Positions 3,348 through 43,623 of a DNA stretch of 64,000 bases are shown here, one piece after another (position 1 is the first letter of the stretch; every line of letters begins with the position of its first letter). This DNA comes from a virus, in the IMG/VR virus record IMGVR_UViG_3300021142_000004. One strand, written 5' to 3'. A model generated the notes under the pieces. It ran no database searches, was not told the DNA's origin, and worked only from the letters and a program-made list of their open reading frames with translations. The position numbers and the translations under genes are program-made.

Positions 3348-5600
3348 CTACGAAATATTTTTTGTGATGAAATCTATTGAAGATATATTTTCTTCTTTTT
3401 TAATCATGATTAAATTATCTGACCAGTTTCTTATCAATGTATTATGAGAAATTACAAATATGTGTTCAAAGTAGGTTCTAATCTTCTTAAAGAACTCACC
3501 AACCATTTCTATATTCTCATCAGCAACTTTACCAAATACTTCATCCATTACAACAATGTTTGGTTTAGGTAATGAAGATATTTTAGTTAATACACTTCTT
3601 AATGCCAATGATGATATTGTCTTTTCATAACCTGAACCTGAATTCAATGGCTTAACTACTCTTGACTCATTATCAATCATTAAGAACTCAACCTCATTCT
3701 TTTCATTAATATTTAATTCCAACATGAAATGACAACTATCAGTCAACAATCTAGATAATTCTTGATTTAATAATGGTATCATATTTTTAAGAATAATCTT
3801 AGATATACCATTCTTACCATAAATTGTTAAGTAGGTTTTAAATACTTGTATCAATTCCTCTTCTGATTTAATCTTTTTAACCAAATCATCATTAACCTTT
3901 ATCTTTTCACCCATATTGGTGATTTGATTTTTGTGTTTTTCGATGAAACCATTAGTTTGTCTGATATCACCATTGGTAGTTTCAATCAATGTTTTTAAAG
4001 TAACAACTTCATTATCAATTTTTTGATTCTCTTCTAATTTTTTCTTGTTACTTTCAAAGTTATCAAGTTTAACTTGTTTCTTGTCAATGTCCAATTGTTT
4101 TTGTTCTGCCTCCAATTCATGACGAGTTCTACGAAGTTTATTCTTCTCATACTCATCATATTCTTTCTTCAGTAAATTCAATTTTTCATCTTCTTCTACC
4201 CTAAACTTCAATGATGTTTCTACTTCACTAATATGTCCTTCACAATCTTTTATTTCGTATTTTAAATCATTGATTTCATCTGTATGATCCACTTCTTCTA
4301 ATGAACGTTTACAAGTTGGACAAACACTTCCTTCCTCTAATTCTTTAATCAATTTAAGTTTTTGATCAATATCATTACGAGTTACTTTAAGGTCAAAATT
4401 AAAGTCAGAAATAGTACTTTTAATACCTTCATGTTTATCTTCATAATAATATTCAGAAGGTTCAAGAACAGAAATTTCATTGGCACTATCTAATGTTAAT
4501 TGTTTTTGTCTTTTTAAATCATTAATTTCTTTTAAAAGAACTTCCGGATTAACTTTTATTAGTTCTTGGTCAATGTTATTATTCCTTAAACGTAATGCGG
4601 TTTCTCTTTTTTCTTCAAGATCTCTTAACCTAACATTAAAATCACCCAATTTTTCAGTTAATTTAATGATTTCACTTTCAGATTCAATTATAGTATTTCT
4701 ACAAAGAGTATTATCATTTTCTAATTGTAATAAGTTATAAGTGTTAGATACCAATTTCTTAGACCATTCATTATAAATTTCTTTACAATTATCTTCCTTT
4801 GCTTTAAGTGCTTCCAAACCTAAAAACTTAGTTAAAATCTGTCCTCTTGCAGTAGGTTTAGATTCAATCAATTCTTCCAAATTATAACCAGTCGTAAGAA
4901 TGGTTGAAAGGAAGTCTTCTTGTGTTCCTATTGCAGATTCAATAAACTCTTCTGTTTCTCTTCTTTGTTCACCACTTAAATTAGTTATAGTCCCATCTGT
5001 ATTTTTCTTATAGAACTCCAATTTATTTGTAACAGTATAATCACCCGACCTACTTTTCTTCCTTGTTAAGATCCTTTCAATGAAATAATCCTCATTATCA
5101 ATTGTTATTTCCCCTTTAACTGATAACTCATTTTCATCAGAAAACCTATTGAATATTTCAATATTGGTTTTAGTTTTGGTTGTTGTATTAAAGAATAAGA
5201 ACATCAATAAGTCTACGGACATCGTAGAATTATGCGATAATATCCCATTTGAATAATATTGTTTTACCTCATCTACCTCAATATCTAATAAATCTTTATA
5301 AACACCCGTTGTCATAACAGATTTAATAACATCATTCCCATTTTCTGTTTTTATAATTTGTCCAGGAATTAATTCTTTAACTGGTAAGAATCTACCATTT
5401 TTTAATTTTATTCTATGGTTTTTAGAACAATTTAAAAATAACCCATCGGAAGTTTCAATTCTATGAACCTCTGAGTTTTTTTCTGTAATTTGACAATCCA
5501 TTATTTTTTTAAATCCATATGGTGTTTTTACTTTTAAATTTAAATCACCATATTTTTCAAATATTGTCTTAATATCACCTATTTTTATTTTTTTATTCAT
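3348..5600 (-). CDS. sbcC: SbcC/Rad50 (gp46-like) ATPase C-terminal fragment, fused to a split-intein C-part (aa 1-124)
   Basis: Intein blocks CSKNHR (B), LLDIEVDE (F) and NGILSHN|S (G, +1 Ser), followed by coiled coils, zinc hook CPTC, signature SGYE, Walker B VVMDE and H-loop ISH. Confidence 0.92.
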   Translation of the reverse strand: MNKKIKIGDIKTIFEKYGDLNLKVKTPYGFKKIMDCQITEKNSEVHRIETSDGLFLNCSKNHRIKLKNGRFLPVKELIPGQIIKTENGNDVIKSVMTTGVYKDLLDIEVDEVKQYYSNGILSHNSTMSVDLLMFLFFNTTTKTKTNIEIFNRFSDENELSVKGEITIDNEDYFIERILTRKKSRSGDYTVTNKLEFYKKNTDGTITNLSGEQRRETEEFIESAIGTQEDFLSTILTTGYNLEELIESKPTARGQILTKFLGLEALKAKEDNCKEIYNEWSKKLVSNTYNLLQLENDNTLCRNTIIESESEIIKLTEKLGDFNVRLRDLEEKRETALRLRNNNIDQELIKVNPEVLLKEINDLKRQKQLTLDSANEISVLEPSEYYYEDKHEGIKSTISDFNFDLKVTRNDIDQKLKLIKELEEGSVCPTCKRSLEEVDHTDEINDLKYEIKDCEGHISEVETSLKFRVEEDEKLNLLKKEYDEYEKNKLRRTRHELEAEQKQLDIDKKQVKLDNFESNKKKLEENQKIDNEVVTLKTLIETTNGDIRQTNGFIEKHKNQITNMGEKIKVNDDLVKKIKSEEELIQVFKTYLTIYGKNGISKIILKNMIPLLNQELSRLLTDSCHFMLELNINEKNEVEFLMIDNESRVVKPLNSGSGYEKTISSLALRSVLTKISSLPKPNIVVMDEVFGKVADENIEMVGEFFKKIRTYFEHIFVISHNTLIRNWSDNLIMIKKEENISSIDFITKNIS
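5229..5600 (-). mobile_element. Split intein C-part (124 aa) of SbcC
   Basis: MNKKIKI...VKTPYG...CSKNHRI...YSNGILSHN, followed by Ser. Confidence 0.88.
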
Positions 5601-5664
5601 ATATATTTTAACTTTTATTTATAAAAATATAATATTAGTGGAAAAACTACTGTTAGAAAAAAAA

Positions 5665-6216
5665 TTATTTTAATTCATCAGGTAAAAACCCTAATATTTT
5701 AATTATTTCATTTTCATCATATTCAATATCTATTAAAGTTTCTTCATCAACACATTTTCCACCAAAGTTTTTTGGGTTAGATTCCACAGCGGTAATACCT
5801 TCAAGTTCTGTAAAATCAATAACATTATTACCACCAAATGATAAGAAATTTGAAAATTCAATTCTCTTTATGTACCATTTGTTATAACGAACTTTATTTT
5901 CATTTAACAAATCAATTGCACCATTAACTTTATTATCTAACCTATCAATCATATCCCATTTAATGTTGATTTTATTTTCTTCAATAAAATCTTTCATTAA
6001 TTTCTTTTGGAACTGATGATCGGTGATACTATCAGAAACTTCCAATGATTTTAGTTTAGTATCATCAGTATTGATGATGTGTTTTGGAACGATTTGTACG
6101 TTTCTTGATCCATACTTATGTTGGAAGTATGTTTTTATTCTTTTAACCTTTTCTTCAGTAAAATTCTCAGGTACATCTTCCCATGTAACCTTAATAACCG
6201 GTGATTTATATTTCAT
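5665..6216 (-). CDS. sbcC: SbcC/Rad50 N-terminal fragment ending in a 29-aa split-intein N-part
   Basis: IKRIEFSNFLSFG...IDF...GITAVESNPKNFGGK (Walker A up to Lys), then intein block A CVDEETLI and a stop. Confidence 0.9.
   Translation of the reverse strand: MKYKSPVIKVTWEDVPENFTEEKVKRIKTYFQHKYGSRNVQIVPKHIINTDDTKLKSLEVSDSITDHQFQKKLMKDFIEENKINIKWDMIDRLDNKVNGAIDLLNENKVRYNKWYIKRIEFSNFLSFGGNNVIDFTELEGITAVESNPKNFGGKCVDEETLIDIEYDENEIIKILGFLPDELK
5668..5754 (-). mobile_element. Atypically short split intein N-part (29 aa)
   Basis: CVDEETLIDIEYDENEIIKILGFLPDELK* directly after the Walker A GGK. Confidence 0.85.
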
Positions 6217-6587: not shown

Positions 6588-6941
6588 TTATTCATCATAA
6601 AGATCTTTTTTTGGTGTTACTTTTACCACTGGTTTCTCACCTTCTTTTATCATTTTAGTTGGTGGTGGTTCGGGTGTGTTTGGTGTTGTTTTAGCAAAAA
6701 CTTTAATAGCATGTGGGAATGGTAAATTAGATTGATCTAAAAAACCAGCATCTTCCCATTTCTTTATTGTCTCTTTTTTTAAGTCATCCAATGTTTTTAT
6801 ATTAGGTTTTTCTCCATATTTTAATATTGTAAAACCTTGTTTAAAAACTTCATTTGCTTTACCTTCAATATCTTCAATGTTGTTTAATTTACAATACTGA
6901 ATAAATTCTTTATCCAAGGTTAAGGAATACTTCTTCTCCAT
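6588..6941 (-). CDS. Hypothetical protein
   Basis: 117-aa ORF in operon context, overlapping the upstream gene. Confidence 0.7.
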   Translation of the reverse strand: MEKKYSLTLDKEFIQYCKLNNIEDIEGKANEVFKQGFTILKYGEKPNIKTLDDLKKETIKKWEDAGFLDQSNLPFPHAIKVFAKTTPNTPEPPPTKMIKEGEKPVVKVTPKKDLYDE

Positions 6942-7206
6942 TCTCTATATCTTTTATATCGTTTATTTTAAAATGTAAAAAAGGACTTTCATTCAATACA
7001 TCATGAAATGTATATTCATCACTTTCCACATCATACAAACCATAACCATGATGGTTAACTGTTTCACCAAAATTTTGTTGTATTAATGAACCTATTTGGA
7101 TAATAGGTATTTTTTTTAATAATTTAATTTTTCCCATAATTCTTTTAATTTTTCTTTTATTTTTTGGTTGATAATTTTTTTTACATTGTATGCATTCTTT
7201 CTCCAT
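6910..7206 (-). CDS. sbcD: SbcD/Mre11 (gp47-like) nuclease C-terminal fragment; likely start Met24 at 7137
   Basis: IIQIGSLIQQNFGE...HGYGLYD matches the conserved GS...FGE motif that follows GDIH in SbcD. Confidence 0.8.
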   Translation of the reverse strand: MEKECIQCKKNYQPKNKRKIKRIMGKIKLLKKIPIIQIGSLIQQNFGETVNHHGYGLYDVESDEYTFHDVLNESPFLHFKINDIKDIENGEEVFLNLG

Positions 7207-7254
7207 GTTTTTGTTGTTTATTATAAAAAAAAGGGATTCAACAAAATTTTAGTG

Positions 7255-7920
7255 TTATATTCTTTTCCAACCTTTTTTTAAATATCCATCAATATCTTTT
7301 TCATCTATTTCAATTTCTCTTTCTAAATATTTTATATCTCTCTTATGTATATCTCCACATAAAACAATATCACACCCAACAAAGTTTAATTTATCATATG
7401 CAGTTTCATCAAATTCATATCCCGTATTGGTAGTAAATCCTTGAATAGGACCATGAAATAATCCAACATGAAGTTTATCCTCTTCTACCTCAAATTCAGG
7501 TCTATTATTGTGTTGGAATAACGAATAGACTATCCAGTTAACATTATCATCAGAATACATTCCACCGTCTCTATAATAGGTTATATTCGGGTTGTTTAAT
7601 GTTTCCACAATTGGTGTGATTGTATCTAATCTATTCATATTATTTTCCAAGAAATCATGATTACCCGGTATAATGATAAGTTTACCTATTTTACTTAATT
7701 CATTGAAGAACCAAGTAACTAATACGACTTGTTCATTGGAAATATTAATTTTTTGGTGCACCACATCACCTGTTAAAACTATTCTTATTTCATCATATTC
7801 AAAACCTTTTAATTTTGGTCTTAAATCAATTAAGAATTCATTTAATTGTTTGTGATAATGTTCGTGTAATAAGAATGTACGAACATGCAAATCTGAAATG
7901 TGTACTATTTTTTTTATCAT
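7255..7920 (-). CDS. sbcD: SbcD/Mre11 (gp47-like) metallophosphoesterase nuclease N-terminal fragment
   Basis: HISDLH, TGDVVH, PGNHD, LFHG and CGDIH motifs; ends before the final GS motif. Confidence 0.9.
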   Translation of the reverse strand: MIKKIVHISDLHVRTFLLHEHYHKQLNEFLIDLRPKLKGFEYDEIRIVLTGDVVHQKINISNEQVVLVTWFFNELSKIGKLIIIPGNHDFLENNMNRLDTITPIVETLNNPNITYYRDGGMYSDDNVNWIVYSLFQHNNRPEFEVEEDKLHVGLFHGPIQGFTTNTGYEFDETAYDKLNFVGCDIVLCGDIHKRDIKYLEREIEIDEKDIDGYLKKGWKRI

Positions 7921-32809: not shown

Positions 32810-34165
32810 TGACATCCTATCATTGTCTAAAAAACAATAAAATTACCAATTGAGGAATGGTTATTACAAACATTAAAGTTCATAATTACATTAGTATAAT
32901 CTAATGGCTCTGTCATAGAAGCAAGGTGATTGTCATAATATCTTTTCAAAATATTAATAGCCGAATTTAAATCTCTATCTATTTCGACTTTATCACTTAA
33001 TTTAACAATTCTATCTTTTAATTCTACCTTATTCTTAAATATTTTTCCTGTTAAAGAATTAAGTTGTGTTGTATTTCTTTCATTTATCTTAATTAAATCA
33101 CATTGTTTATTTTGTAATTTATATTTAAGAAATTCTAAGAACATATTAATATTAGATTCATTAAATGATTTTCTAATACTTTTTTTATTCTTATTAATAC
33201 CTTCTATTGACATTAAAGATTTAATTGTTAATTCACCTACTACAATTGTTTTGTAGTTCATATTCACTAATTGTTTACTCTGAATATGTAGAGTTTCTTT
33301 TATTTGAGTATTTTTTTTAGAATATAATTTTTTCTTAACCTTATTTAGTTTATTGTAATTTTTACTTCCTTTTTCTTTTTTACTTAATTTAGATTTAATT
33401 TCATTAATTTGTTTACCAAAATACTGATTAATCTTTTTAGCTTTATTCTTTAAGATAAATACATTACCTTTATTATCCACACCAGTTCCTAAATTTTTTA
33501 ATCCCAAATCAAACGCCAATACCTTAGTATTAATTATAACATTATCATTATATGATATTGTGTCGTTAATCACAATATCACATAACCATTTATTATTATT
33601 ATTATTAAATTTAACACAAATTTGTTTAATATTTAATTCTGATACATTAGTTAGGTTAGATTTATAGTTAAATAATATTTTATTTATTTGTATTTTATTA
33701 TCTTTAAATACCCAACCTGATTGGTTAAAAACTAAGGTATGATATCTTCCTAATTCTTTTTGTTTAGGCGGTTTTGCTGTATTATCTTTTTTAATTAGGG
33801 TAAAGAATGATTGATATGATTGGGAGACTTCGGTTGCAATTGTTTGTATTGCCTTTGCGTTAAGTAATTTCCATTCTGGTTTTGTTACATTTTTTAATTT
33901 TGGAAGAAGATTAATTAATTCGAATTTTGAATATATTTTTTTATTTATTTCGTAATATTTTTGTTGAATATCAATAAGAGTATTCCATACATCCATTCTA
34001 ATATTCGACAACTGGTTAAGTTGTAATATTTGTTCTTGAGTTGGAAATAATCTAATTGAGTATGTTTTCATATTTTATATAAATAACTTATTACTTATTT
34101 ACATAAATATAAATTAAATTGTGAAAAAATTGGTTCTGTGGGAAATTTGACTATATTTTCTGAAT
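32810..34165 (-). mobile_element. Putative non-autonomous IS200/IS605-family element (ends approximate)
   Basis: tnpB followed by ...GATAGGATGTCA (32810-32821), which resembles family right ends; an imperfect 13-bp hairpin lies at 34074-34107. Confidence 0.55.
32827..34071 (-). CDS. tnpB: TnpB-family RNA-guided endonuclease (IS200/IS605; solo, IS1341-like)
   Basis: KTYSIRLFPT HTH start, RuvC-I AFDLGLK, RuvC-II VVGEL and RuvC-III DRDLNSAINI; no adjacent tnpA. Confidence 0.92.
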   Translation of the reverse strand: MKTYSIRLFPTQEQILQLNQLSNIRMDVWNTLIDIQQKYYEINKKIYSKFELINLLPKLKNVTKPEWKLLNAKAIQTIATEVSQSYQSFFTLIKKDNTAKPPKQKELGRYHTLVFNQSGWVFKDNKIQINKILFNYKSNLTNVSELNIKQICVKFNNNNNKWLCDIVINDTISYNDNVIINTKVLAFDLGLKNLGTGVDNKGNVFILKNKAKKINQYFGKQINEIKSKLSKKEKGSKNYNKLNKVKKKLYSKKNTQIKETLHIQSKQLVNMNYKTIVVGELTIKSLMSIEGINKNKKSIRKSFNESNINMFLEFLKYKLQNKQCDLIKINERNTTQLNSLTGKIFKNKVELKDRIVKLSDKVEIDRDLNSAINILKRYYDNHLASMTEPLDYTNVIMNFNVCNNHSSIGNFIVF

Positions 34166-34209: not shown

Positions 34210-34917
34210 TTATGAACTACAACCTACACATTCAAATATAGAATCTGTTGGTTTAGTTGTTTCAACATAATCTACTTTAGGTTTATCGGTCTTAGTTTGT
34301 TGAATTTTTGTTGTATCTAACGCCAAGTGTTTTGCTCCCGTTGATATCGCCTTTGTTCTAACATAATAACATAATGTTTTAAGACCCCTCTCCCATGAAT
34401 AAAAATGTGAAGATGAAATTTTTGATAATGTTGGGTTTGACATATATATGTTCATTGACTGAGACTGATCAATAAATGGTCCTCTATCTGCTGACATATT
34501 AATCAATTCTTTCTGTGAAATTTCCCAAATTGTTTTATATTTTAAAATCAAATGTTCAATTCTTTGAATTTTTTTAGTATAATTCTTTTCTTCTTTATCC
34601 AAATAATTATTAAAATTAATATTTTGAATAGAACCATCATTCATAATAATCTCATTCTTTAATTCTTCAGACCAAATACCAAGTTTTTCAAAATCATTAA
34701 TCAAATATTTGTTAACAATCAATATCTCACCACCAACTACTCTTCTGTTAAATAATGCAGAGTGTGCAGGTTCTGTCATCTCAAATGAACCTGTGATTTT
34801 AGCAGAACTATTGTGACTAACACAACCATTTTCAGTTATGTAATGGTGATCATTTTCAACTTCAATATCCCATACGGGTTCTTTTAGAATTGATTTAGTA
34901 ATTTTTTTTATTTTCAT
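34210..34917 (-). CDS. nrdA: Class Ia ribonucleotide reductase alpha, fragment 3, with a 36-aa IntC (34810-34917)
   Basis: VWDIEVENDHHYITENGCVSHN|SSAKITG; IDQSQSMN, GLKTLCYY and C-terminal CVGC. Confidence 0.93.
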   Translation of the reverse strand: MKIKKITKSILKEPVWDIEVENDHHYITENGCVSHNSSAKITGSFEMTEPAHSALFNRRVVGGEILIVNKYLINDFEKLGIWSEELKNEIIMNDGSIQNINFNNYLDKEEKNYTKKIQRIEHLILKYKTIWEISQKELINMSADRGPFIDQSQSMNIYMSNPTLSKISSSHFYSWERGLKTLCYYVRTKAISTGAKHLALDTTKIQQTKTDKPKVDYVETTKPTDSIFECVGCSS

Positions 34918-36379
34918 AATTTATACCTTTTTTATTTAAAAAATTTTTTAATTTTTCTTCATTAAAATAAAACCCATCTTCTTCCCATAATATTAAAACT
35001 TCAAAACCATTATTTATTGCAATATTAATTTTTTCTTTATCTTTATTTATTACTTTAATTGGGTCAACAATTTTATTTTTGAATTTTTTTATTGATTCGT
35101 TAATCTCATGTTTCTCCCAATTAGGATGCCAATAACTACCATTATATTCTATAATTATTTTTTTGTTTTTTAAGGTAAAATCATAGAAATAAATGTTTTT
35201 TTTATCTTTAATAAAATATTCTTTATTATTTTCCACACCTAAATAAACATCGTCATAATTATTTTCAATTAAAAAATCATATAATGGTTTAAAATGTCTT
35301 AAACTACTTTTACTTGCCTTTAAGATTTTAACAAATAATTTTTCTTTAGTCTCTTGATATTTTTTAAAACCTTTTTCGTAATCGTTTTCTTTTTTAATAA
35401 AATAACCTAAAGATTTATTATCCGATAATTTACATTTTTCTTTATACAATAATTCACCATTTTCGTCATACTTTTTTTTAAAAAAATCCAAACTATTAGA
35501 ATCTTTTTTTTGATTTTTAATTTTATACTCTTTTAAACTTTTTTCTAAATCGTCATATTTTTTTAAAAAATAATTTAAACTTGAATTGTCTTTTTTAAGA
35601 TTATTTTCGATATATTTTTCAATGTATATATTGTCACCATATTTTTTTTTGAAAAAATTTAAATTAATTGTTGTTTTTTTATTTTTTTCATCAAATATTT
35701 GTTTTGATTTTTCAACATCTCCATTTGATTTTTTCAACGCCCAAGAAAGGGATGATGAATCTTTTTTAATGTAATTTTCCCATTTTTCTAACCATTCACT
35801 TCCATATCTTATTTTAAAATTTTCTATAGTGTTTTTACTTTTATTAACATAATCGTCATATTTCTGAATACCTTCTTTTTCGCCGTATTTTTTTATAAAA
35901 TTAATTTTAGTAGTTGATTTTTTAGTTTTATAAGAAAATATTTTTTCCAAAGCTTCTTCTTCAGTAAATCCTAGATTAATATAATAATTTTTATCATAGT
36001 ATTTTGAAAATTGTTTTTGATTATTTTTAAATTTTTCATTGCCAATTTCATCTCCATACATTAAACATAAAAATGTTTTACTGTTAGAATCATTTAAATT
36101 CATCATTTTATAATTTAAAAATTTAACCATTCTATCAATATCGATATTTGTTTTATTATTTTCAATGTATTTTATAACACTTCTAATTTGTTTTTTGTTT
36201 TTAATAAAAATATCAATTATTTCAAATGGTTTAATTTTTTCATCGCTAATTTCTAATATTTTAAATAAAAAACTTTCATCTCCATTAATTTTTATAACGT
36301 TTTCATCTAAATTTAACATAAAAAAAATAATACTGTTTTTAGTTTTAATTTTGGTATTGTTGAAAAATAACATATTCAT
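34895..36379 (-). CDS. Free-standing Vsr-like (EDxHD/DUF559-type) homing endonuclease with KYG helical repeats
   Basis: C-terminal YFYDF...IIIEYNGSYWH...D..K...GFEVLILWE and repeated KKYG-x-E units; lies between nrdA fragments 2 and 3. Confidence 0.8.
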   Translation of the reverse strand: MNMLFFNNTKIKTKNSIIFFMLNLDENVIKINGDESFLFKILEISDEKIKPFEIIDIFIKNKKQIRSVIKYIENNKTNIDIDRMVKFLNYKMMNLNDSNSKTFLCLMYGDEIGNEKFKNNQKQFSKYYDKNYYINLGFTEEEALEKIFSYKTKKSTTKINFIKKYGEKEGIQKYDDYVNKSKNTIENFKIRYGSEWLEKWENYIKKDSSSLSWALKKSNGDVEKSKQIFDEKNKKTTINLNFFKKKYGDNIYIEKYIENNLKKDNSSLNYFLKKYDDLEKSLKEYKIKNQKKDSNSLDFFKKKYDENGELLYKEKCKLSDNKSLGYFIKKENDYEKGFKKYQETKEKLFVKILKASKSSLRHFKPLYDFLIENNYDDVYLGVENNKEYFIKDKKNIYFYDFTLKNKKIIIEYNGSYWHPNWEKHEINESIKKFKNKIVDPIKVINKDKEKINIAINNGFEVLILWEEDGFYFNEEKLKNFLNKKGINYENKKNY

Positions 36380-36409
36380 ATTAATTGTTTTTTATAAATA
36401 TGTTATTTT
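36364..36409 (-). promoter_or_regulatory. Start-codon-sequestering hairpin with TATTTAT in its 5' arm
   Basis: AAAATAACATATTTAT pairs with ATGAATATGTTATTTT (16 bp, one G-U). Confidence 0.75.
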
Positions 36410-36438
36410 ATTTTTTTTTAACACGTAAATGACAGATA

Positions 36439-37419
36439 TTATTCGTTTATATTAATTATGTCATCATTTTCATTTAAATCTTTAACTTTAACCCATATGT
36501 TTTCATTATTTCTATTAATTAAAAATTTATGTTCCGGACTACATTTAAAAATAGTACCGTCTTCCATTTCTATATTAATAATTTCAGAGTAACCGTTGTA
36601 ATAAATTTTATCCGATATTGAATATCCATTTAAGGTTTTTATTAAAATTGGAGTTTTAAAATTATACCAAACACCACCATTTTCATTTTTTTCAATGTTA
36701 TCAACATCTATATCATTTAATTCACAAATCTCTTTAAAACTTAAAACACCCTTTTCAGTTATTACCTTTGTATCAGATGTTTGACAAGCTACTGGCATTT
36801 GTGCCGTAACTAAACTATTACAAACACCATATGTTTTAACATCTTCTTTTAATGTGTTCCAATCCCATAAACCTGATAGTTCAACATTATCCCACATATC
36901 AAATTGGAAAATACCTTTTGACATTGGTGAACCATCAAAACCTTCATAATTCAAATATTTACCAGTTTTACAAAGATCATTACTTTCAGTAATTGCCGCA
37001 AAATATATTGTTTCAAATATTTGTTTATTTAATTTTTTTGCCTCCTCTGATGTGAAAATATAATCTAACAAATAAAATACATCTGCTAATCCTTGAGTAC
37101 CAATTGCAATTGCTCTTTGTTCTAATCCACCCTTTCTACCTTTTTGAGTAGAATAACTATTGATATCAATTACTTTATTAAGTGCATTAACTACTTTCCT
37201 TACTTCTTTATACAATAGTTGGAAATCAAATTTACCATCAACAATAAAGTTCTTTAAAACAATAGAAGATAATGTACAGATTGCAGTTGTTTCAGAATCA
37301 GTATATTGATAAATCTCACAATTATGTACCAATATATCATTACCATAAAAACATTCCGTTTCTGGTACTTGTATATCATATACGTCTTCTTTTTTAATTA
37401 ATTTATTTATTTTTATCAT
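36439..37419 (-). CDS. nrdA: NrdA fragment 2: IntC1 (33 aa), 178-aa extein, IntN2 (115 aa)
   Basis: VYDIQVP...NDILVHN|CEIYQY...AICTLSSI...AQMPVA|CQTSDTKV...KCSPEHKF...KDLNENDDI*. Confidence 0.93.
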   Translation of the reverse strand: MIKINKLIKKEDVYDIQVPETECFYGNDILVHNCEIYQYTDSETTAICTLSSIVLKNFIVDGKFDFQLLYKEVRKVVNALNKVIDINSYSTQKGRKGGLEQRAIAIGTQGLADVFYLLDYIFTSEEAKKLNKQIFETIYFAAITESNDLCKTGKYLNYEGFDGSPMSKGIFQFDMWDNVELSGLWDWNTLKEDVKTYGVCNSLVTAQMPVACQTSDTKVITEKGVLSFKEICELNDIDVDNIEKNENGGVWYNFKTPILIKTLNGYSISDKIYYNGYSEIINIEMEDGTIFKCSPEHKFLINRNNENIWVKVKDLNENDDIININE

Positions 37420-38575
37420 TTTTTAAATATTCAAATTTATATTTTTTATAAGTGTTTCTTTTACCTTTACATACAGACACTATTGCTGAAATATTACCAT
37501 TTTCAATACTTTTAGATGCCTCTGTCGCGCTTTGAAATACTGTTCTGTTACCATTGGAATCTATTTTAACAACAGATTTTTTTACCCCTTTAGGTATTTC
37601 AATTTTATATTCGCTATTTTCATATCTAAAAATGTTATCATAACTAGTGTTTTTTTTACATTTCCTACGAATAAACTCAACACAAAATCCATGTTCTTTG
37701 GACGCTTCGGAGGTGTTTTTATACTCAACTTCAACAGTGTCGTTTATGTTTTTTTTAAAAAAAACTTTTTTGTTAATTTTTTCTTTTATTTTAGGTTTAA
37801 TATAGTCATTTCTAAAAGATTTTAAAATAACTAAATCTTTATTTTCAAATTTCCAATGGTAATTTTTATGTGTTCCCCCATTTTTTAAACATGAATAAAG
37901 TCTAGACGGTGTTAATTTATATTTTTCAATTGCTGAGATTGTTGTTAATCTATCTAAAATTTCTTTTGTATTAATATCTATCATTTCAACAATTGGTAAT
38001 TTTTCTTTTCTAGTTTTAATTATTTTTCGTTTAGTCTCATCGCTCATTATTTTACCTTTATTCCAATGATTATTGTTTATTTTACGTAAATGGCTAAAAT
38101 TTTCTTCAATTGGCCTTTTAAAATTTGGATTTTTTTCTCCTGACCAATTTTTTGACAAAATTTTATTTATTTTATCTTTCTTATCGGGAATAAATTTTAA
38201 AATATCACCTCCTGTTCCACCATCAGTTATATTTGTTAAAATACCTCCATCAATACTTTTACCGTAAAATTTTATTAATTCACGTTCAATATTCAAAACT
38301 AAATTTTCATCTTCACTTTCGTAAACAATTATATAATTTGGTTCATAATTGTTTTCTTTTAATAATTTTACAGTTCTGCATTTATTGGGATTAACATCCC
38401 CATCGCATGATATCGGATTTTTAACATAATGGAACAAATGTCTTTTTATTTTATTTTTAGTTTCATGTAATCCCTTTCCAACATAAAACGGTTTGAAAGT
38501 GATTCCAGAATAATATGGATTATCATAATTACCTGGAAATCTATCATCCAATAAAACATACACATAATAATTCAT
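37403..38575 (-). CDS. Free-standing GIY-YIG-like homing endonuclease with NUMOD3/NUMOD1 repeats
   Basis: YYVYVLLD...PFYVGKG...R...E..LI..YG......LTNITDGG; WNKGKIMSDETKRKI; NUMOD1 tails; lies between nrdA fragments 1 and 2. Confidence 0.85.
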   Translation of the reverse strand: MNYYVYVLLDDRFPGNYDNPYYSGITFKPFYVGKGLHETKNKIKRHLFHYVKNPISCDGDVNPNKCRTVKLLKENNYEPNYIIVYESEDENLVLNIERELIKFYGKSIDGGILTNITDGGTGGDILKFIPDKKDKINKILSKNWSGEKNPNFKRPIEENFSHLRKINNNHWNKGKIMSDETKRKIIKTRKEKLPIVEMIDINTKEILDRLTTISAIEKYKLTPSRLYSCLKNGGTHKNYHWKFENKDLVILKSFRNDYIKPKIKEKINKKVFFKKNINDTVEVEYKNTSEASKEHGFCVEFIRRKCKKNTSYDNIFRYENSEYKIEIPKGVKKSVVKIDSNGNRTVFQSATEASKSIENGNISAIVSVCKGKRNTYKKYKFEYLKNDKNK

Positions 38576-38617
38576 AAAAATTGTTCATATATAAATATAT
38601 CAATAATGAGTAAACGA

Positions 38618-40201
38618 CTATTTGTACACATCTAAAACATCCGTTTCAACTAATTCATCCGCTCTAATATAACCACGATTCTTAGTGAAAATCAAATGAT
38701 CTGGGGTACATTTTATACTTTTTCCAGTTTCTTCATCAATTATTTCTAAAATTTCAGAATTTTTTTTAGTTAATTTTCCGGTTAATATATCAACAAATTT
38801 ACCGTTTTCACTTTTTACTTTTAATTTTTCCGAAGTTTCAATTAAATCAATTACGTTTTTAATTGTTAAATTTTCAACATCACCATTTTCTCTTTGGATG
38901 TTTAATTGGACATCTCCAGTTAAACAACAGAGATTTGATTGTTTGATAACACCATAGTTTTGATGATTTGTTTTCTTATTAGCATTATCTTTAGAACATA
39001 AATAAGGTACACCAGTTTCAACCTGAGACTCAATTATTTTATTCCATATATCTTGTGCCTTAACTTTCCTACCAATACCTAATTCTACCGCCTTATTATA
39101 ATTCTCCAAATATTCATCACCATATGAATCTTGTAATGGTTTAATACCATTTTTAATGATGTCATTTGGACAGAATAAATACCAATCAGAGTCAGATTTA
39201 ACAGCCTCCATGAAGTTGTCAGGTATCCATAATGCAGTAAACAAATCCCTTGCCCTTAACTCTTCCGCACCTGTGTTCTTTTTAATCTCCAAAAGATCCA
39301 TTATATCTTTATGCCAAGGTTCAAGATATATTGCAGCACTACCAGGTCTTCTACCTTGTTGGTTAAAGAATCTTAATGATTCATTTATAATTTTAAGGTA
39401 TTTTAAAAGACCACCAGCATAACCACCTGATGATGAAATTCTACTTTCTTTACTTCTGATATTTGACATACATAAACCAATACCAGCAGCATCAGATGAA
39501 TATGTTGAGATATCATTCATTGTACCCAAAAGACCTTCTCTTGAATCTGCTTCATTATATTTCAACACACAAGATGCAAGTTGAGGAACTTTAGTACCAG
39601 CATTGATCATAATTGGTGTTGCAGGAGATATTAATTGTGTTGATAATGATTTGTAATATTCAACAGCATCTTCAAAAGATTTTGTTACCCACAAAGCCAC
39701 TCTCATATACATATGTTGTGGTCTTTCAGATAATTTACCCTTTGAGTTCTTTAACAAATACATTTCAGCCAATGATCTCCATGCAAAATAATCAAAATTA
39801 TAATCATTTTCATGATTAATAATATAATCTATTTTATCCGCACCATACTTTTCAATTGTGTTTATTAACTCAATATTTATAACACCCTCATCATATAGAG
39901 TTTTCATTGTCTCAGAAAAACTTGGGTTTGTTTTTTTATGATAAGAAGATATTGCAATTATGGCGGCCAATCTCGAATAATCGTGATGGCTACCAGTGTA
40001 TGATGCTGCAATTTCATATACCAATTTATCTATTTCTCTTGTTTTTATCTGACCTTCGGTTGGTACAGATGTGATAACTTTTATGAAAATCTCATCTGAA
40101 TTAACATTTAATCCTTTAGATGCTTTCTTTATTCTGTTGTAAATTTTTTGTGGGTTGAATGACTCATCACTCCCACTTCTTTTCTTAATTCTTAGTGACA
40201 T
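38618..40201 (-). CDS. nrdA: NrdA fragment 1 (ATP cone to catalytic Cys) with a 102-aa IntN1 (38621-38926)
   Basis: IKKRSG ATP cone, PATP, QLASC, QQGRRPG, ETGVPY, QSNLC|CLTGD...KCTPDHLIFTKNRGY...DEL*. Confidence 0.95.
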   Translation of the reverse strand: MSLRIKKRSGSDESFNPQKIYNRIKKASKGLNVNSDEIFIKVITSVPTEGQIKTREIDKLVYEIAASYTGSHHDYSRLAAIIAISSYHKKTNPSFSETMKTLYDEGVINIELINTIEKYGADKIDYIINHENDYNFDYFAWRSLAEMYLLKNSKGKLSERPQHMYMRVALWVTKSFEDAVEYYKSLSTQLISPATPIMINAGTKVPQLASCVLKYNEADSREGLLGTMNDISTYSSDAAGIGLCMSNIRSKESRISSSGGYAGGLLKYLKIINESLRFFNQQGRRPGSAAIYLEPWHKDIMDLLEIKKNTGAEELRARDLFTALWIPDNFMEAVKSDSDWYLFCPNDIIKNGIKPLQDSYGDEYLENYNKAVELGIGRKVKAQDIWNKIIESQVETGVPYLCSKDNANKKTNHQNYGVIKQSNLCCLTGDVQLNIQRENGDVENLTIKNVIDLIETSEKLKVKSENGKFVDILTGKLTKKNSEILEIIDEETGKSIKCTPDHLIFTKNRGYIRADELVETDVLDVYK

Positions 40202-41178: not shown

Positions 41179-43623
41179 TTATTGATTATTGGCCATTTGG
41201 TTTCTCCTTTGATACGCCTCTCTAGCCCTATTAATATTGTTCTTTGTCTTTTCTTCTTCGTGACCTAATAACGTATTTTGCATCTCTGTGTCGATATCCA
41301 AATATTCATTATTAAATTTACAATTTTGAAACACAACACCATCTTTACCAATACGAGATTTAAGTAATGTTAAAGTTGCTAAGTTATGTTCTTTTTGTTC
41401 CAAAGTTTTACCGATAGATAAAATAACGTGACCAATTTGTGCTTTCTTAATAGAACCACCCATTTGATCTGCGGTAACCACTTCAGATGATATTGAATCA
41501 CGATTACCTTGTGTTGCCGTCCATATTGCCATTTCAAACTCACTGGTCATTGACTCCAATTGTCTCATAATTGACCCTTCTCCCTTCCATTCTTCCCCGT
41601 TATTTGACCTTTCAGGTGAAATACAGTCAACGTAGTCAATCAACAATAAATCGACCTTAAATCCGTCTGAATACATCTTTCTGATTTTAGATTTAATCTC
41701 AGAAATAGTAACACCATCAGATTGTAATTTCAATAATTTAATTGAACCTTTTGTGTTATCTTGTATTTCCTTAAGACGAAACAAAACTTCTTCTTTGTTA
41801 TCACTTTGTTCATCAGGTGCGATACCTGACCAAATTGTATAGTGTTTTCTTTTAATATTACCTCGATTATCTTCAAAAAATACTTGAAGTACATTATAAC
41901 CTAAATTATAAGCAGTGTTTGCAAATTTAGTTAATAATGTTGTGTTATGTGTTAATACATAATCCCTAGTAACAAATAATTCATCTGTATTTGATACTTT
42001 TATACATACCGCTTCTTCGTTATGTGAAAAATTAATTGATTTAATAAATTTTTGTGAAATATATTTTTTTCTTTTTCTAAATCTTTCTATTTTTCTTATT
42101 AATCTAAATGGTACAATATTATTTGAAAAAGATATTGTTACAACATATGCCATTTGATCTAACTTTTTAAAACCTTTATATTTAAAAGTTGGTTGTTTTA
42201 AAGTTATATTACATGTTCCACCTAATGATAAAACTAATTCTCTAATATTTAACGATAAATCTTTTGAAATTGTTATTATTTGTGTACAACCTTTTTTATC
42301 CACATAACCATCAGTGTCCATTAAACCTTGTAAAATTGATAATCTAACTTCAAATGAATTATATAAATAATCATTTGGGATAAATTTATTATTAGATTCT
42401 GTCCCCAATAAATTATATTTTTCTAAATCTTTTTTAATTGTGTAATTTAATAAAATTTTCTTTATTGTTTTTATACCAGTTAATGTTTCTCTTTCATATT
42501 CATTAAATGATGTATGAATATTCAAATGTTTAATATTATCGAATATTTCATCATCTTTAGTTGAAATTTGTATTGTATCACAACCTAAACAACCATCACC
42601 CAAGAGTAAACCTAATAAATATGGATCAATAAATACTTCTTTTTCATTAAAGTTAATTGGTTCAACAATAGGTAAACGATAATTATATCTACCTCGTTTT
42701 TTTATATCCAACATCATTTCAGATGTTTTCATAACTTTATAATTGTTATTTGGTTTATATAAAGATTTACCATTTTTTCTTATTTTTGTTGTTCTCATAT
42801 TAAGAGTATTAACTGACCATAAATGTTCTTGATCACAGTTAACAAAAGTATTATCAGTAAATTCAACTCTATATATTGGTCTATTACCTTGTGGAAAAAC
42901 CCCTATTGTAAATTGTTCATTACCATCAGAACCTATAATTTTATCACCACATTTAATATCCCCAATTTTCATCCAACCATTTGGAGTCAATATTGGTTCA
43001 CTTATAGGTAATGCTTTACCAGTACCAGTTGGTGCTAATACAACACCCAATTCACCTAATCCTAAACCACCTTTTAAAAGATTATCAATACCTACAATAC
43101 CTGTTGGTATTGGATGTCTAAAATCTTTCTCTAAAGCACCTTCAATATCGTGAAATACATCTGTTGCGTCATCATTAATAATACCAACTTGTAACGCCTT
43201 TTGAATGATTTGTTCAATTTTTGCATAATTTTCAAAATCACCATTTTCAATAATACTTTGTACGTTTTTAAGTTCTCTCTTTAAATTTTGTTGTTTACAA
43301 AAATTAAGTGCGGTATCTTTAACATATTCTGTTTCAACACTATTTTTAATTATTTCTAGTGTGTCAATGTGAATTCTAGCAGATTCTTTATTACCGTTTT
43401 CTGCCATTATCTTTTGAGCTAACGTATTATAATCAGGAATTTTATTATATGATCTATATAATTCTTTCAAGTTCTCCATAATAAACTTAAAAGCATTATT
43501 ATCAAAGAAACGTGATTCTATTACATCAATGATGTTCTCACCATACTTTTTATCCTCAATAATCGCTTTGATTAATGATTGTTGAAACGTAGCACCCAAA
43601 TACCCAAAATTCCTTTCTTCCAT
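41179..43623 (-). CDS. dnaB: Replicative DnaB/gp41-like helicase containing a 357-aa intein
   Basis: PTGIVGID, Walker A APTGTGK|T, LLIDYVD, TATQGNR and KSRIG. Confidence 0.92.
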   Translation of the reverse strand: MEERNFGYLGATFQQSLIKAIIEDKKYGENIIDVIESRFFDNNAFKFIMENLKELYRSYNKIPDYNTLAQKIMAENGNKESARIHIDTLEIIKNSVETEYVKDTALNFCKQQNLKRELKNVQSIIENGDFENYAKIEQIIQKALQVGIINDDATDVFHDIEGALEKDFRHPIPTGIVGIDNLLKGGLGLGELGVVLAPTGTGKALPISEPILTPNGWMKIGDIKCGDKIIGSDGNEQFTIGVFPQGNRPIYRVEFTDNTFVNCDQEHLWSVNTLNMRTTKIRKNGKSLYKPNNNYKVMKTSEMMLDIKKRGRYNYRLPIVEPINFNEKEVFIDPYLLGLLLGDGCLGCDTIQISTKDDEIFDNIKHLNIHTSFNEYERETLTGIKTIKKILLNYTIKKDLEKYNLLGTESNNKFIPNDYLYNSFEVRLSILQGLMDTDGYVDKKGCTQIITISKDLSLNIRELVLSLGGTCNITLKQPTFKYKGFKKLDQMAYVVTISFSNNIVPFRLIRKIERFRKRKKYISQKFIKSINFSHNEEAVCIKVSNTDELFVTRDYVLTHNTTLLTKFANTAYNLGYNVLQVFFEDNRGNIKRKHYTIWSGIAPDEQSDNKEEVLFRLKEIQDNTKGSIKLLKLQSDGVTISEIKSKIRKMYSDGFKVDLLLIDYVDCISPERSNNGEEWKGEGSIMRQLESMTSEFEMAIWTATQGNRDSISSEVVTADQMGGSIKKAQIGHVILSIGKTLEQKEHNLATLTLLKSRIGKDGVVFQNCKFNNEYLDIDTEMQNTLLGHEEEKTKNNINRAREAYQRRNQMANNQ
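41944..43014 (-). mobile_element. Class-3 (Ala1, WCT-triplet) intein with LAGLIDADG endonuclease
   Basis: Starts ALPISEPILTPNG; EHLW (Trp B12), AVCIKV (Cys F4), VLTHN (Thr G5); YLLGLLLGDG and LQGLMDTDG motifs; +1 residue is Thr. Confidence 0.9.

Follow-up and report, generated by a model that had tools for sequence, protein, structure and literature searches.

The broken gp46 gene

In a 64,000-nucleotide (nt) stretch of the IMG/VR virus record IMGVR_UViG_3300021142_000004, hereafter called the window, the gene for a gp46/Rad50/SbcC-like ATPase is divided into two open reading frames (ORFs) at the point where a predicted split intein interrupts its Walker A motif. The window has a G+C content of 27% and is part of a 163.5-kb metagenomic contig from an uncultured, AT-rich phage; the whole locus is read from the minus strand. 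The first ORF (N ORF, 5665-6216) encodes 183 amino acids (aa), of which residues 1-154 constitute the gp46/Rad50-like N-extein (5755-6216), running up to the first half of Walker A (..NPKNFGGK) and colinear with the intein-free homologues of loci L006 and L179. It is followed by a 29-aa N-terminal intein part (IntN, 5668-5754; CVDEETLIDIEYDENEIIKILGFLPDELK), which starts with Cys1 (codon 5752-5754), comprises block A in the form of a β1-β2 hairpin of about 12 residues and then a tail ending in ..LGFLPDELK, and is closed by the stop codon TAA (5665-5667). A spacer of 64 nt (5601-5664), without any ORF and with stop codons in all three frames, separates it from the second ORF (C ORF, 3348-5600; 750 aa), which lies in a different frame and begins with MNKKIKIGDIK.... 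Its first 124 residues make up the C-terminal intein part (IntC, 5229-5600), consisting of strand β3, helix α1 (residues 7-17) and the blocks B (SKNH, with His62), F (with Asp106) and G (SHN, with Asn124). The C-terminus of IntC reads GILSHN and is followed by STMSVDLL, whose first residue, Ser+1 (codon 5226-5228), would be the transesterification nucleophile and corresponds to the Ser/Thr of Walker A (GK-S/T). The remaining C-extein (3348-5225), of 626 aa including Ser+1, carries the Rad50 zinc hook, Walker B and the signature region. The two intein parts are of opposite net charge (IntN -8, IntC +5), and the excision of the 526-nt element results in a 780-aa protein colinear with intein-free homologues.

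The identity of the host protein was indicated by the SbcC-like PHROG profile phrog_77 (E = 3.6e-36), which aligned only from residue 125 of the C ORF, and the Pfam models Rad50_zn_hook and SbcC_Walker_B matched the same ORF below their cut-offs. The N-terminal Walker A, the zinc hook CxxC and the C-terminal signature/Walker B region that characterize Rad50/SbcC/gp46 proteins were all present, and an Mre11/SbcD-like gene is placed upstream of the gp46 locus. A first-pass annotation, made from the letters of the window, had already described a Walker A motif NFGGK|ST cut by an intein, an upstream ORF ending with 29 acidic intein residues, a basic remainder 64 bp downstream in another frame with blocks B, F, G and HN|S, a gp46/SbcC/Rad50 host and no homing endonuclease gene (HEG) between the halves. 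This description was borne out in coordinates, lengths, spacer and frame: the N ORF leaves the host sequence at GGK|C, whereas intein-free homologues read NFGGK|S/T-T... through; its tail starts with Cys and is acidic; the 124-aa IntC is basic and holds the three blocks; the phrog_77 match and the intein-free colinear homologues agree with the host; and only the 64-nt spacer lies between the halves.

Identification of the element as a split intein

Judged from its sequence and modelled fold, the gp46 element in Walker A is a true intein with a natural, atypical split. By sequence comparison with the PDB, IntC matched CatC, a consensus atypical intein (6dsl_B, E = 6e-6), gp41-1 (E = 8.5e-4) and VidaL (E = 5e-3); IntN alone gave no meaningful match to PDB sequences, and the IntC of the window protein was without a Pfam match, a faint Intein_splicing match being obtained only in one relative. 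The AlphaFold2 (AF2) model of IntC, based on an alignment of 35 relatives, had a predicted local distance difference test (pLDDT) value of 94.3 and displayed the helix at residues 7-17, with otherwise beta structure. In a Foldseek comparison with the PDB, this model matched VidaL best (6vgv; template modelling score 0.88, root-mean-square deviation 1.4 Å over 122 of 124 columns), then NrdJ-1, the Mtu RecA intein and gp41-1, and Cat over 104 columns only; almost every top match was an intein or an intein-like HINT domain. A single-sequence AF2 model of the naturally fused homologue P0123 reached a pLDDT of 35 and was unusable.

The residues of the splicing chemistry were found to be strongly conserved. 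Cys1 stands directly after GGK (Cys155 of the N ORF) and did not vary among 26 aligned N ORFs or among 56 distinct tails, while His62, His123 and Asn124 were invariant in both IntC alignments and Asp106 was invariant in one of them and at least 90% conserved in the other. The +1 residue is Ser125 here and Ser or Thr in the relatives. The element thus presents the features of a class-1 intein, namely a nucleophile at position 1, blocks B, F and G, a Ser/Thr at +1, empty sites and a HINT fold, together with those of a naturally atypically split one, which are separate ORFs, an IntN of less than 40 aa with block A only and an IntC with blocks B, F and G.

Co-folding of the halves, which the first-pass annotation had proposed as a check, assembled them into one domain in silico. 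IntC with eight extein residues and the C-terminal 36 residues of the N ORF were co-folded, each with its own alignment, and the interaction prediction score from aligned errors (ipSAE) was 0.86 in all three runs versus 0.21 for the best control; 58 of 80 solved complexes attained the mark set for this score, compared with 2 of 110 mismatched pairs. Contacts were at least 90% alike between runs, with a partner pLDDT of at least 81. In these models, IntN residues 160-166 formed a strand between IntC residues 4-8 and 22-25, the splice-junction residues 155 and 122-125 belonged to the interface, and the IntN tail contacted IntC with helical periodicity (170/171, 174/175, 179 and 181/182). The high score may partly reflect the likeness of this pair to solved atypical split inteins, and it is no proof of binding by this pair.

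Position of the break and the IntN tail

Natural atypical breaks have been placed either after β2 (S1; VidaL, PolB16) or after α1 (S2; the AceL and GOS TerL inteins) (PMC13014065). By alignment and model, the gp46 break is S1-like as in VidaL, after β2 and before α1. The sequence alignment with VidaL begins at IntC residue 3, and in the contiguous homologue P0146 the hairpin (CVTKETKIKIKI) is directly joined to ..EITIGELNDIF.., the counterpart of the KIKIGDIKTIF helix region of IntC. The features of the TerL type (a split after α1 at S2, an IntC of about 104-115 aa and a terminase host) were absent, as α1 belongs to IntC and the host is SbcC/Rad50, and the gp46 intein is related to the TerL group without being a member of it. 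The view in the first-pass annotation of a further atypical split intein with a short N-part, a kind it called the AceL-TerL/VidaL type, is thus refined: the site is the S1 site of VidaL and not the S2 site of AceL and the other TerL inteins.

The HINT core takes up only about 12-13 IntN residues, and the rest is a conserved, family-specific tail (..ENEIIKILGFLPDELK) of about 16 residues (..EIIKILGFLPDELK). Across the 56 distinct tails, this region had an invariant G22 and P25 and a nearly invariant F23, E27, L28 and K29. The contiguous relatives P0123, P0144 and P0152 keep this tail, followed by a short linker, and because they retain it the tail probably predates the break. The combination of a pre-α1 (S1) break with an IntN that carries a conserved tail of about 16 residues is new here. 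In P0144 and P0152, recovered by the representative search, SbcD and SbcC are fused into proteins of 1,017-1,211 aa that have a contiguous intein in Walker A, including a ..GFLPNELK tail.

Empty sites and endonuclease-bearing relatives

The homologue search suggested in the first-pass annotation retrieved relatives with a putative Vsr-like HEG between the halves, relatives with a contiguous intein and relatives without any intein. In IMG/VR, more than 900 gp46 homologues were matched, and the 160 loci examined were almost all intein-free, with 616-626 aa after GGK, which corresponds to the 750 aa of the C ORF minus the 124 aa of IntC; only 12 IMG/VR loci had this IntC. The closest comparison was provided by L179, a locus from another sample with 99.5%, 97.0% and 98.7% identity to the window's contig over 20 kb, in which gp46 is a single 780-aa ORF reading NFGGKTTISVDLL. 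Relative to L179, the window's contig has 529 extra nt starting from the Cys1 codon, made up of the 526-nt element and a poorly aligned +1 codon. The alignment with L006 breaks at the same place, and both L179 and L006 read NFGGK-TT... in proteins of 780 aa in total.

The mismatches to L179 were seen to bunch at the insertion site, with nine in 283 nt upstream (L178 5742-6024; window about 5755-6037) and three in 12 nt downstream (L178 6551-6562; window about 5217-5228), followed by one in about 1,880 nt, and this cluster looks like a co-conversion or recombination tract. In protein P0001, the N-extein is 97% identical to that of the window and IntN only 66%, which indicates different intein alleles in nearly the same host gene.

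In nine of the 12 IntC-bearing IMG/VR loci, 1,052-1,067 nt lie between the halves and are occupied by an ORF of 336-343 aa whose end overlaps the IntC start codon; of the others, one had a 40-nt spacer and two had no IntN that matched the search pattern. A putative endonuclease gene between the halves was also observed in L004. The intervening ORF matches phrog_22677, as does an ORF that fractures nrdA elsewhere in the window (34895-36379), and the two have in common a C-terminal nuclease-like block (..YDFT..IIEYNG..H...VLIIWD..), so that the intervening ORF is considered a putative Vsr-like homing endonuclease. A free-standing HEG between the halves, by which a fractured gene is recognized, is absent from the gp46 locus of the window, which is best read as a fractured gene that lost its endonuclease and kept a 64-nt spacer.

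Conservation of the split arrangement

A search of 5.8 billion proteins returned 161 homologues of the N ORF, and the intein-bearing ones, down to 41% identity, all had their stop 29-31 residues behind the Cys. A length of exactly 29 residues was counted for 74 tails, 56 of them distinct, with the stop after ..LGFLPDELK at the same position as the TAA of the window. For IntC, 512 relatives were obtained from a search of 1.84 billion representative proteins; the top 30 or so were mostly SbcC C-halves of about 750 aa that begin with IntC, and among the remoter ones, other gp46/SbcC proteins had a contiguous intein in the same position of the P-loop, while further inteins belonged to TerL and UvsX. 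Among moderately diverged relatives, of which the endonuclease-less L102 is one, the ratio of nonsynonymous to synonymous substitution rates (dN/dS) was 0.04-0.17 in IntC and 0.07-0.2 in IntN, and these values indicate that purifying selection acts on both halves of the intein; dN/dS was saturated when the window was compared with distant alleles, and those comparisons were left unused.

An identical N ORF was present on contigs of three samples. A nucleotide search with the whole locus gave no match among GenBank phages, and no cultured relative was found, the protein search with the N ORF giving only matches of 26-31% identity, in huge uncultured phages.

Proposed mechanism and alternative explanations

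Very probably, the two ORFs together represent a single gp46/Rad50/SbcC-like ATPase gene that was broken by a split class-1 intein and whose products are spliced together, and this intein is almost certainly functional. The layout of the locus, its precise agreement with the empty sites, the HINT fold, the conserved positions and the polymorphism among relatives are matters of observation, and assembly in the cell, the chemistry and kinetics of splicing and the evolutionary order are inferred in the following terms. Both ORFs would be translated separately, probably from one transcript, and the acidic IntN hairpin would insert into a basic, largely pre-formed IntC, completing the HINT fold. 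Cys1 would then undergo the N-S acyl shift, Ser+1 would carry out the transesterification and Asn124 would cyclize, so that a 780-aa ATPase results whose P-loop (..NFGGK-ST..) is intact. The element itself would be a selfish mobile intein whose usual form in the relatives has a free-standing Vsr-like HEG in the break, and which at this locus would have lost the HEG and left the 64-nt spacer.

Several observations weigh against this reading. The block B Thr (TxxH) is replaced, by Ser here and by Ala in many relatives. The 64-nt spacer can be loosely aligned to the leader of the endonuclease gene of the relatives, and this alignment lies in low-complexity, AT-rich DNA and is only suggestive. The coexistence of intein-bearing and intein-free forms may stem from gain by homing or from loss by recombination. 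As regards expression, no clear Shine-Dalgarno sequence or promoter was found before the IntC ORF, and TATAAATA, considered as a T4-type late promoter in the spacer, was rejected, given that it occurs in the window no more often than expected (28 occurrences versus 28.5); scans for sigma-70 promoters and terminators remained at shuffle level, with no terminator-like site at the spacer.

The loss of the canonical block B Thr would also suit an arrangement in which the halves do not splice and form a mere non-covalent docking module that joins two Rad50 fragments, and so would the neighbouring gp47, which is fractured without an intein and has complementary acidic and basic tails that seem to keep its halves together, a situation with a parallel in the SbcD-like case of Dassa et al. 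2009 (PMC2677866). Such an arrangement is nonetheless unlikely. The chemistry residues (Cys1, His62, Asp106, His123, Asn124 and Ser/Thr+1) are kept in dozens of diverged alleles with dN/dS around 0.1, an unspliced domain of 153 residues inside GGK|ST would leave the P-loop discontinuous, and the nearest solved relatives, VidaL, Cat and gp41-1, splice actively.

Still less probable is a decaying pseudogene, in which the intein would have broken the gene and the phage would manage without gp46. The rarity of intein alleles among the IMG/VR relatives (12 loci versus more than 900) and the loss of the endonuclease at the window locus fit this idea, against which both ORFs are intact (183 and 750 codons), the C-extein equals that of L179 over about 1,880 nt save for four changes, both intein halves show the signature of purifying selection and the layout persists in homologues down to 41% identity.

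That the intein is actually contiguous and was split by an assembly or sequencing indel, as the first-pass annotation had allowed for positions 5601-5667, or that the halves are joined by recoding, is scarcely credible despite the existence of contiguous versions (P0123, P0144, P0146 and P0152) and a T8 run in the spacer, because the independently assembled JGI contig agrees with the ENA contig in all 200 nt around the spacer, all three spacer frames contain stops, the stop position is common to 56 distinct homologous tails and the spacers of relatives measure 40 nt, or about 1,055 nt with the endonuclease gene.

Within the favoured reading of a spliced gp46, a more speculative extension would be that the S1 split is a distinct solution in which a 12-residue hairpin is complemented by an affinity-raising docking tail (..LGFLPDELK), that its charge polarity was perhaps selected for orthogonality to an intein of reversed polarity in an AAA ATPase of the same phage, and that the endonuclease-less element may spread with the help of endonucleases that co-infecting relatives provide in trans, a process that would account for the co-conversion-like tract; this set of proposals is tentative and more doubtful than not.

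Comparison with known split inteins

Split inteins with a short IntN are wanted for protein semisynthesis and labelling, and to our knowledge there are few natural ones whose N fragment is short enough for chemical synthesis, these being AceL-, GOS- and Cat-TerL, VidaL and PolB16. Atypically split inteins as a kind have been known since Dassa et al. 2009 described the 'Terminase' locus, and the later examples are AceL-TerL, GOS-TerL, Cat, VidaL and PolB16.

The nearest counterpart is VidaL, a naturally atypically split intein (PDB 6vgv/6vgw) reported by Burton et al. 2020, as cited in PMC13014065. Both have an S1 break, depend on Cys and originate from metagenomic phages, whereas the IntN of VidaL has 16 aa (PMC13014065) versus 29 aa here, and sequence identity is about 25%; the gp46 IntN is longer because a tail of about 16 residues follows the hairpin. 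The AceL-, GOS- and Cat-TerL inteins, with IntN of 25, 37 and 30 aa, respectively, and a Cat-TerL IntC of 104 aa (PMC11766414), resemble the gp46 intein in the short IntN and in the location at the P-loop of a phage ATPase, and CatC was the best PDB sequence match. They differ from it in the S2 split (PMC13014065), the IntC of 104-115 aa, the TerL host and the +1 residue, which is Cys instead of Ser. Similarly, the PolB16 OarG intein (PMC10189870) shares a natural S1 split, with an IntN of 15 aa, and differs in being cysteine-less (Ser1/Ser+1), in its PolB host, in its IntC of 168 aa and in its sheep-gut metagenome origin (PMC10189870).

Fractured genes consisting of a host gene, a split intein and a free-standing GIY-YIG or Vsr-like endonuclease were described by Dassa, London, Stoddard, Schueler-Furman and Pietrokovski in 2009, with the 'Terminase' locus among them broken at an unusual point (PMC2677866). 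The gp46 relatives with an endonuclease in the gap have this layout, as does nrdA in the window, and the gp41-7 locus of the same study is, like the window's gp46, without an endonuclease. On the other hand, gp46/Rad50/SbcC was not among their eight host enzyme types, and all but one of their inteins were broken at the canonical site (PMC2677866). In a literature search that did not cover the primary papers on Cat, VidaL and GOS-TerL, no description of gp46, Rad50 or SbcC as a split-intein host was found.

To these the gp46 family adds a large natural set, made up of dozens of diverged alleles whose host protein is new, that combines Cys1 and Ser+1 with an S1-type break and a predicted docking tail. 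Moreover, the family displays all stages, from the empty site, the contiguous intein and the intein fractured by a Vsr-like endonuclease to the endonuclease-less split intein, and it offers a near-isogenic pair of which one member has the intein and the other lacks it. At a non-canonical break point, the gene-breaking model put forward by Dassa et al. can thereby be tested.

Other interrupted genes in the same phage

The first-pass annotation had counted the gp46 intein as the third split intein of this phage, which is correct for the window, where nrdA is cut twice, and too low for the contig, where an intein in an AAA ATPase gene makes four. Going by its sequence, this is a phage with at least four split inteins, which represent a candidate set of mutually orthogonal pairs. 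The nrdA gene (34210-40201, minus strand) consists of three ORFs with two canonical split inteins, and the Pfam ribonucleotide reductase barrel is colinear across the pieces (1-213, 213-390 and 391-523); the gaps hold a GIY-YIG/NUMOD gene (37403-38575) and the Vsr-like gene at 34895-36379. Directly downstream of the last nrdA piece lies a TnpB/IS605 OrfB-like gene (OrfB_IS605, Cas12f1-like TNB; 32827-34071, minus strand).

The AAA ATPase gene (L180 6347-7027 and 7304-8149), about 8.4 kb before the start of the window on the same contig, holds another atypically split intein, the second after that of gp46. Its basic IntN of 27 aa begins at GDPGTGK|C, the Cys being followed by 26 residues, and a gap of 276 nt separates it from an acidic IntC of 121 aa ending in SHN|T. 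This IntC shares 34% identity with that of gp46, in the catalytic core only, and the charge polarity of the two inteins is opposite.

The gp47/SbcD gene (6910-7920, minus strand) is fractured without an intein, its N half (7255-7920) ending in GDIHKR plus an acidic tail of 27 aa and its C half (6910-7206) carrying ..MGKIKLLKKIPIIQIGSLIQQNFGE, while in 72 related loci gp47 is contiguous (GDIHKRQTFTLPNGGKGIMIGSLIQQNFGE). A similar fractured gene without an intein, the 'SbcD-like' one, was described by Dassa et al. 2009. In L179, an ORF of 294 aa is placed between the gp47 halves, about 807 nt of which are lacking in the window. The start of the window's C half (MEKECIQCKK..) matches the N-terminus of the intervening ORF of L042 (MEKNCERCGNK..), which identifies it as a remnant of that ORF.

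A gp41-like helicase gene in the window (41179-43623, minus strand) has a contiguous LAGLIDADG intein after GTGK, which starts with Ala, ends in THN|T and has a Cys in block F, a class-3-like pattern.

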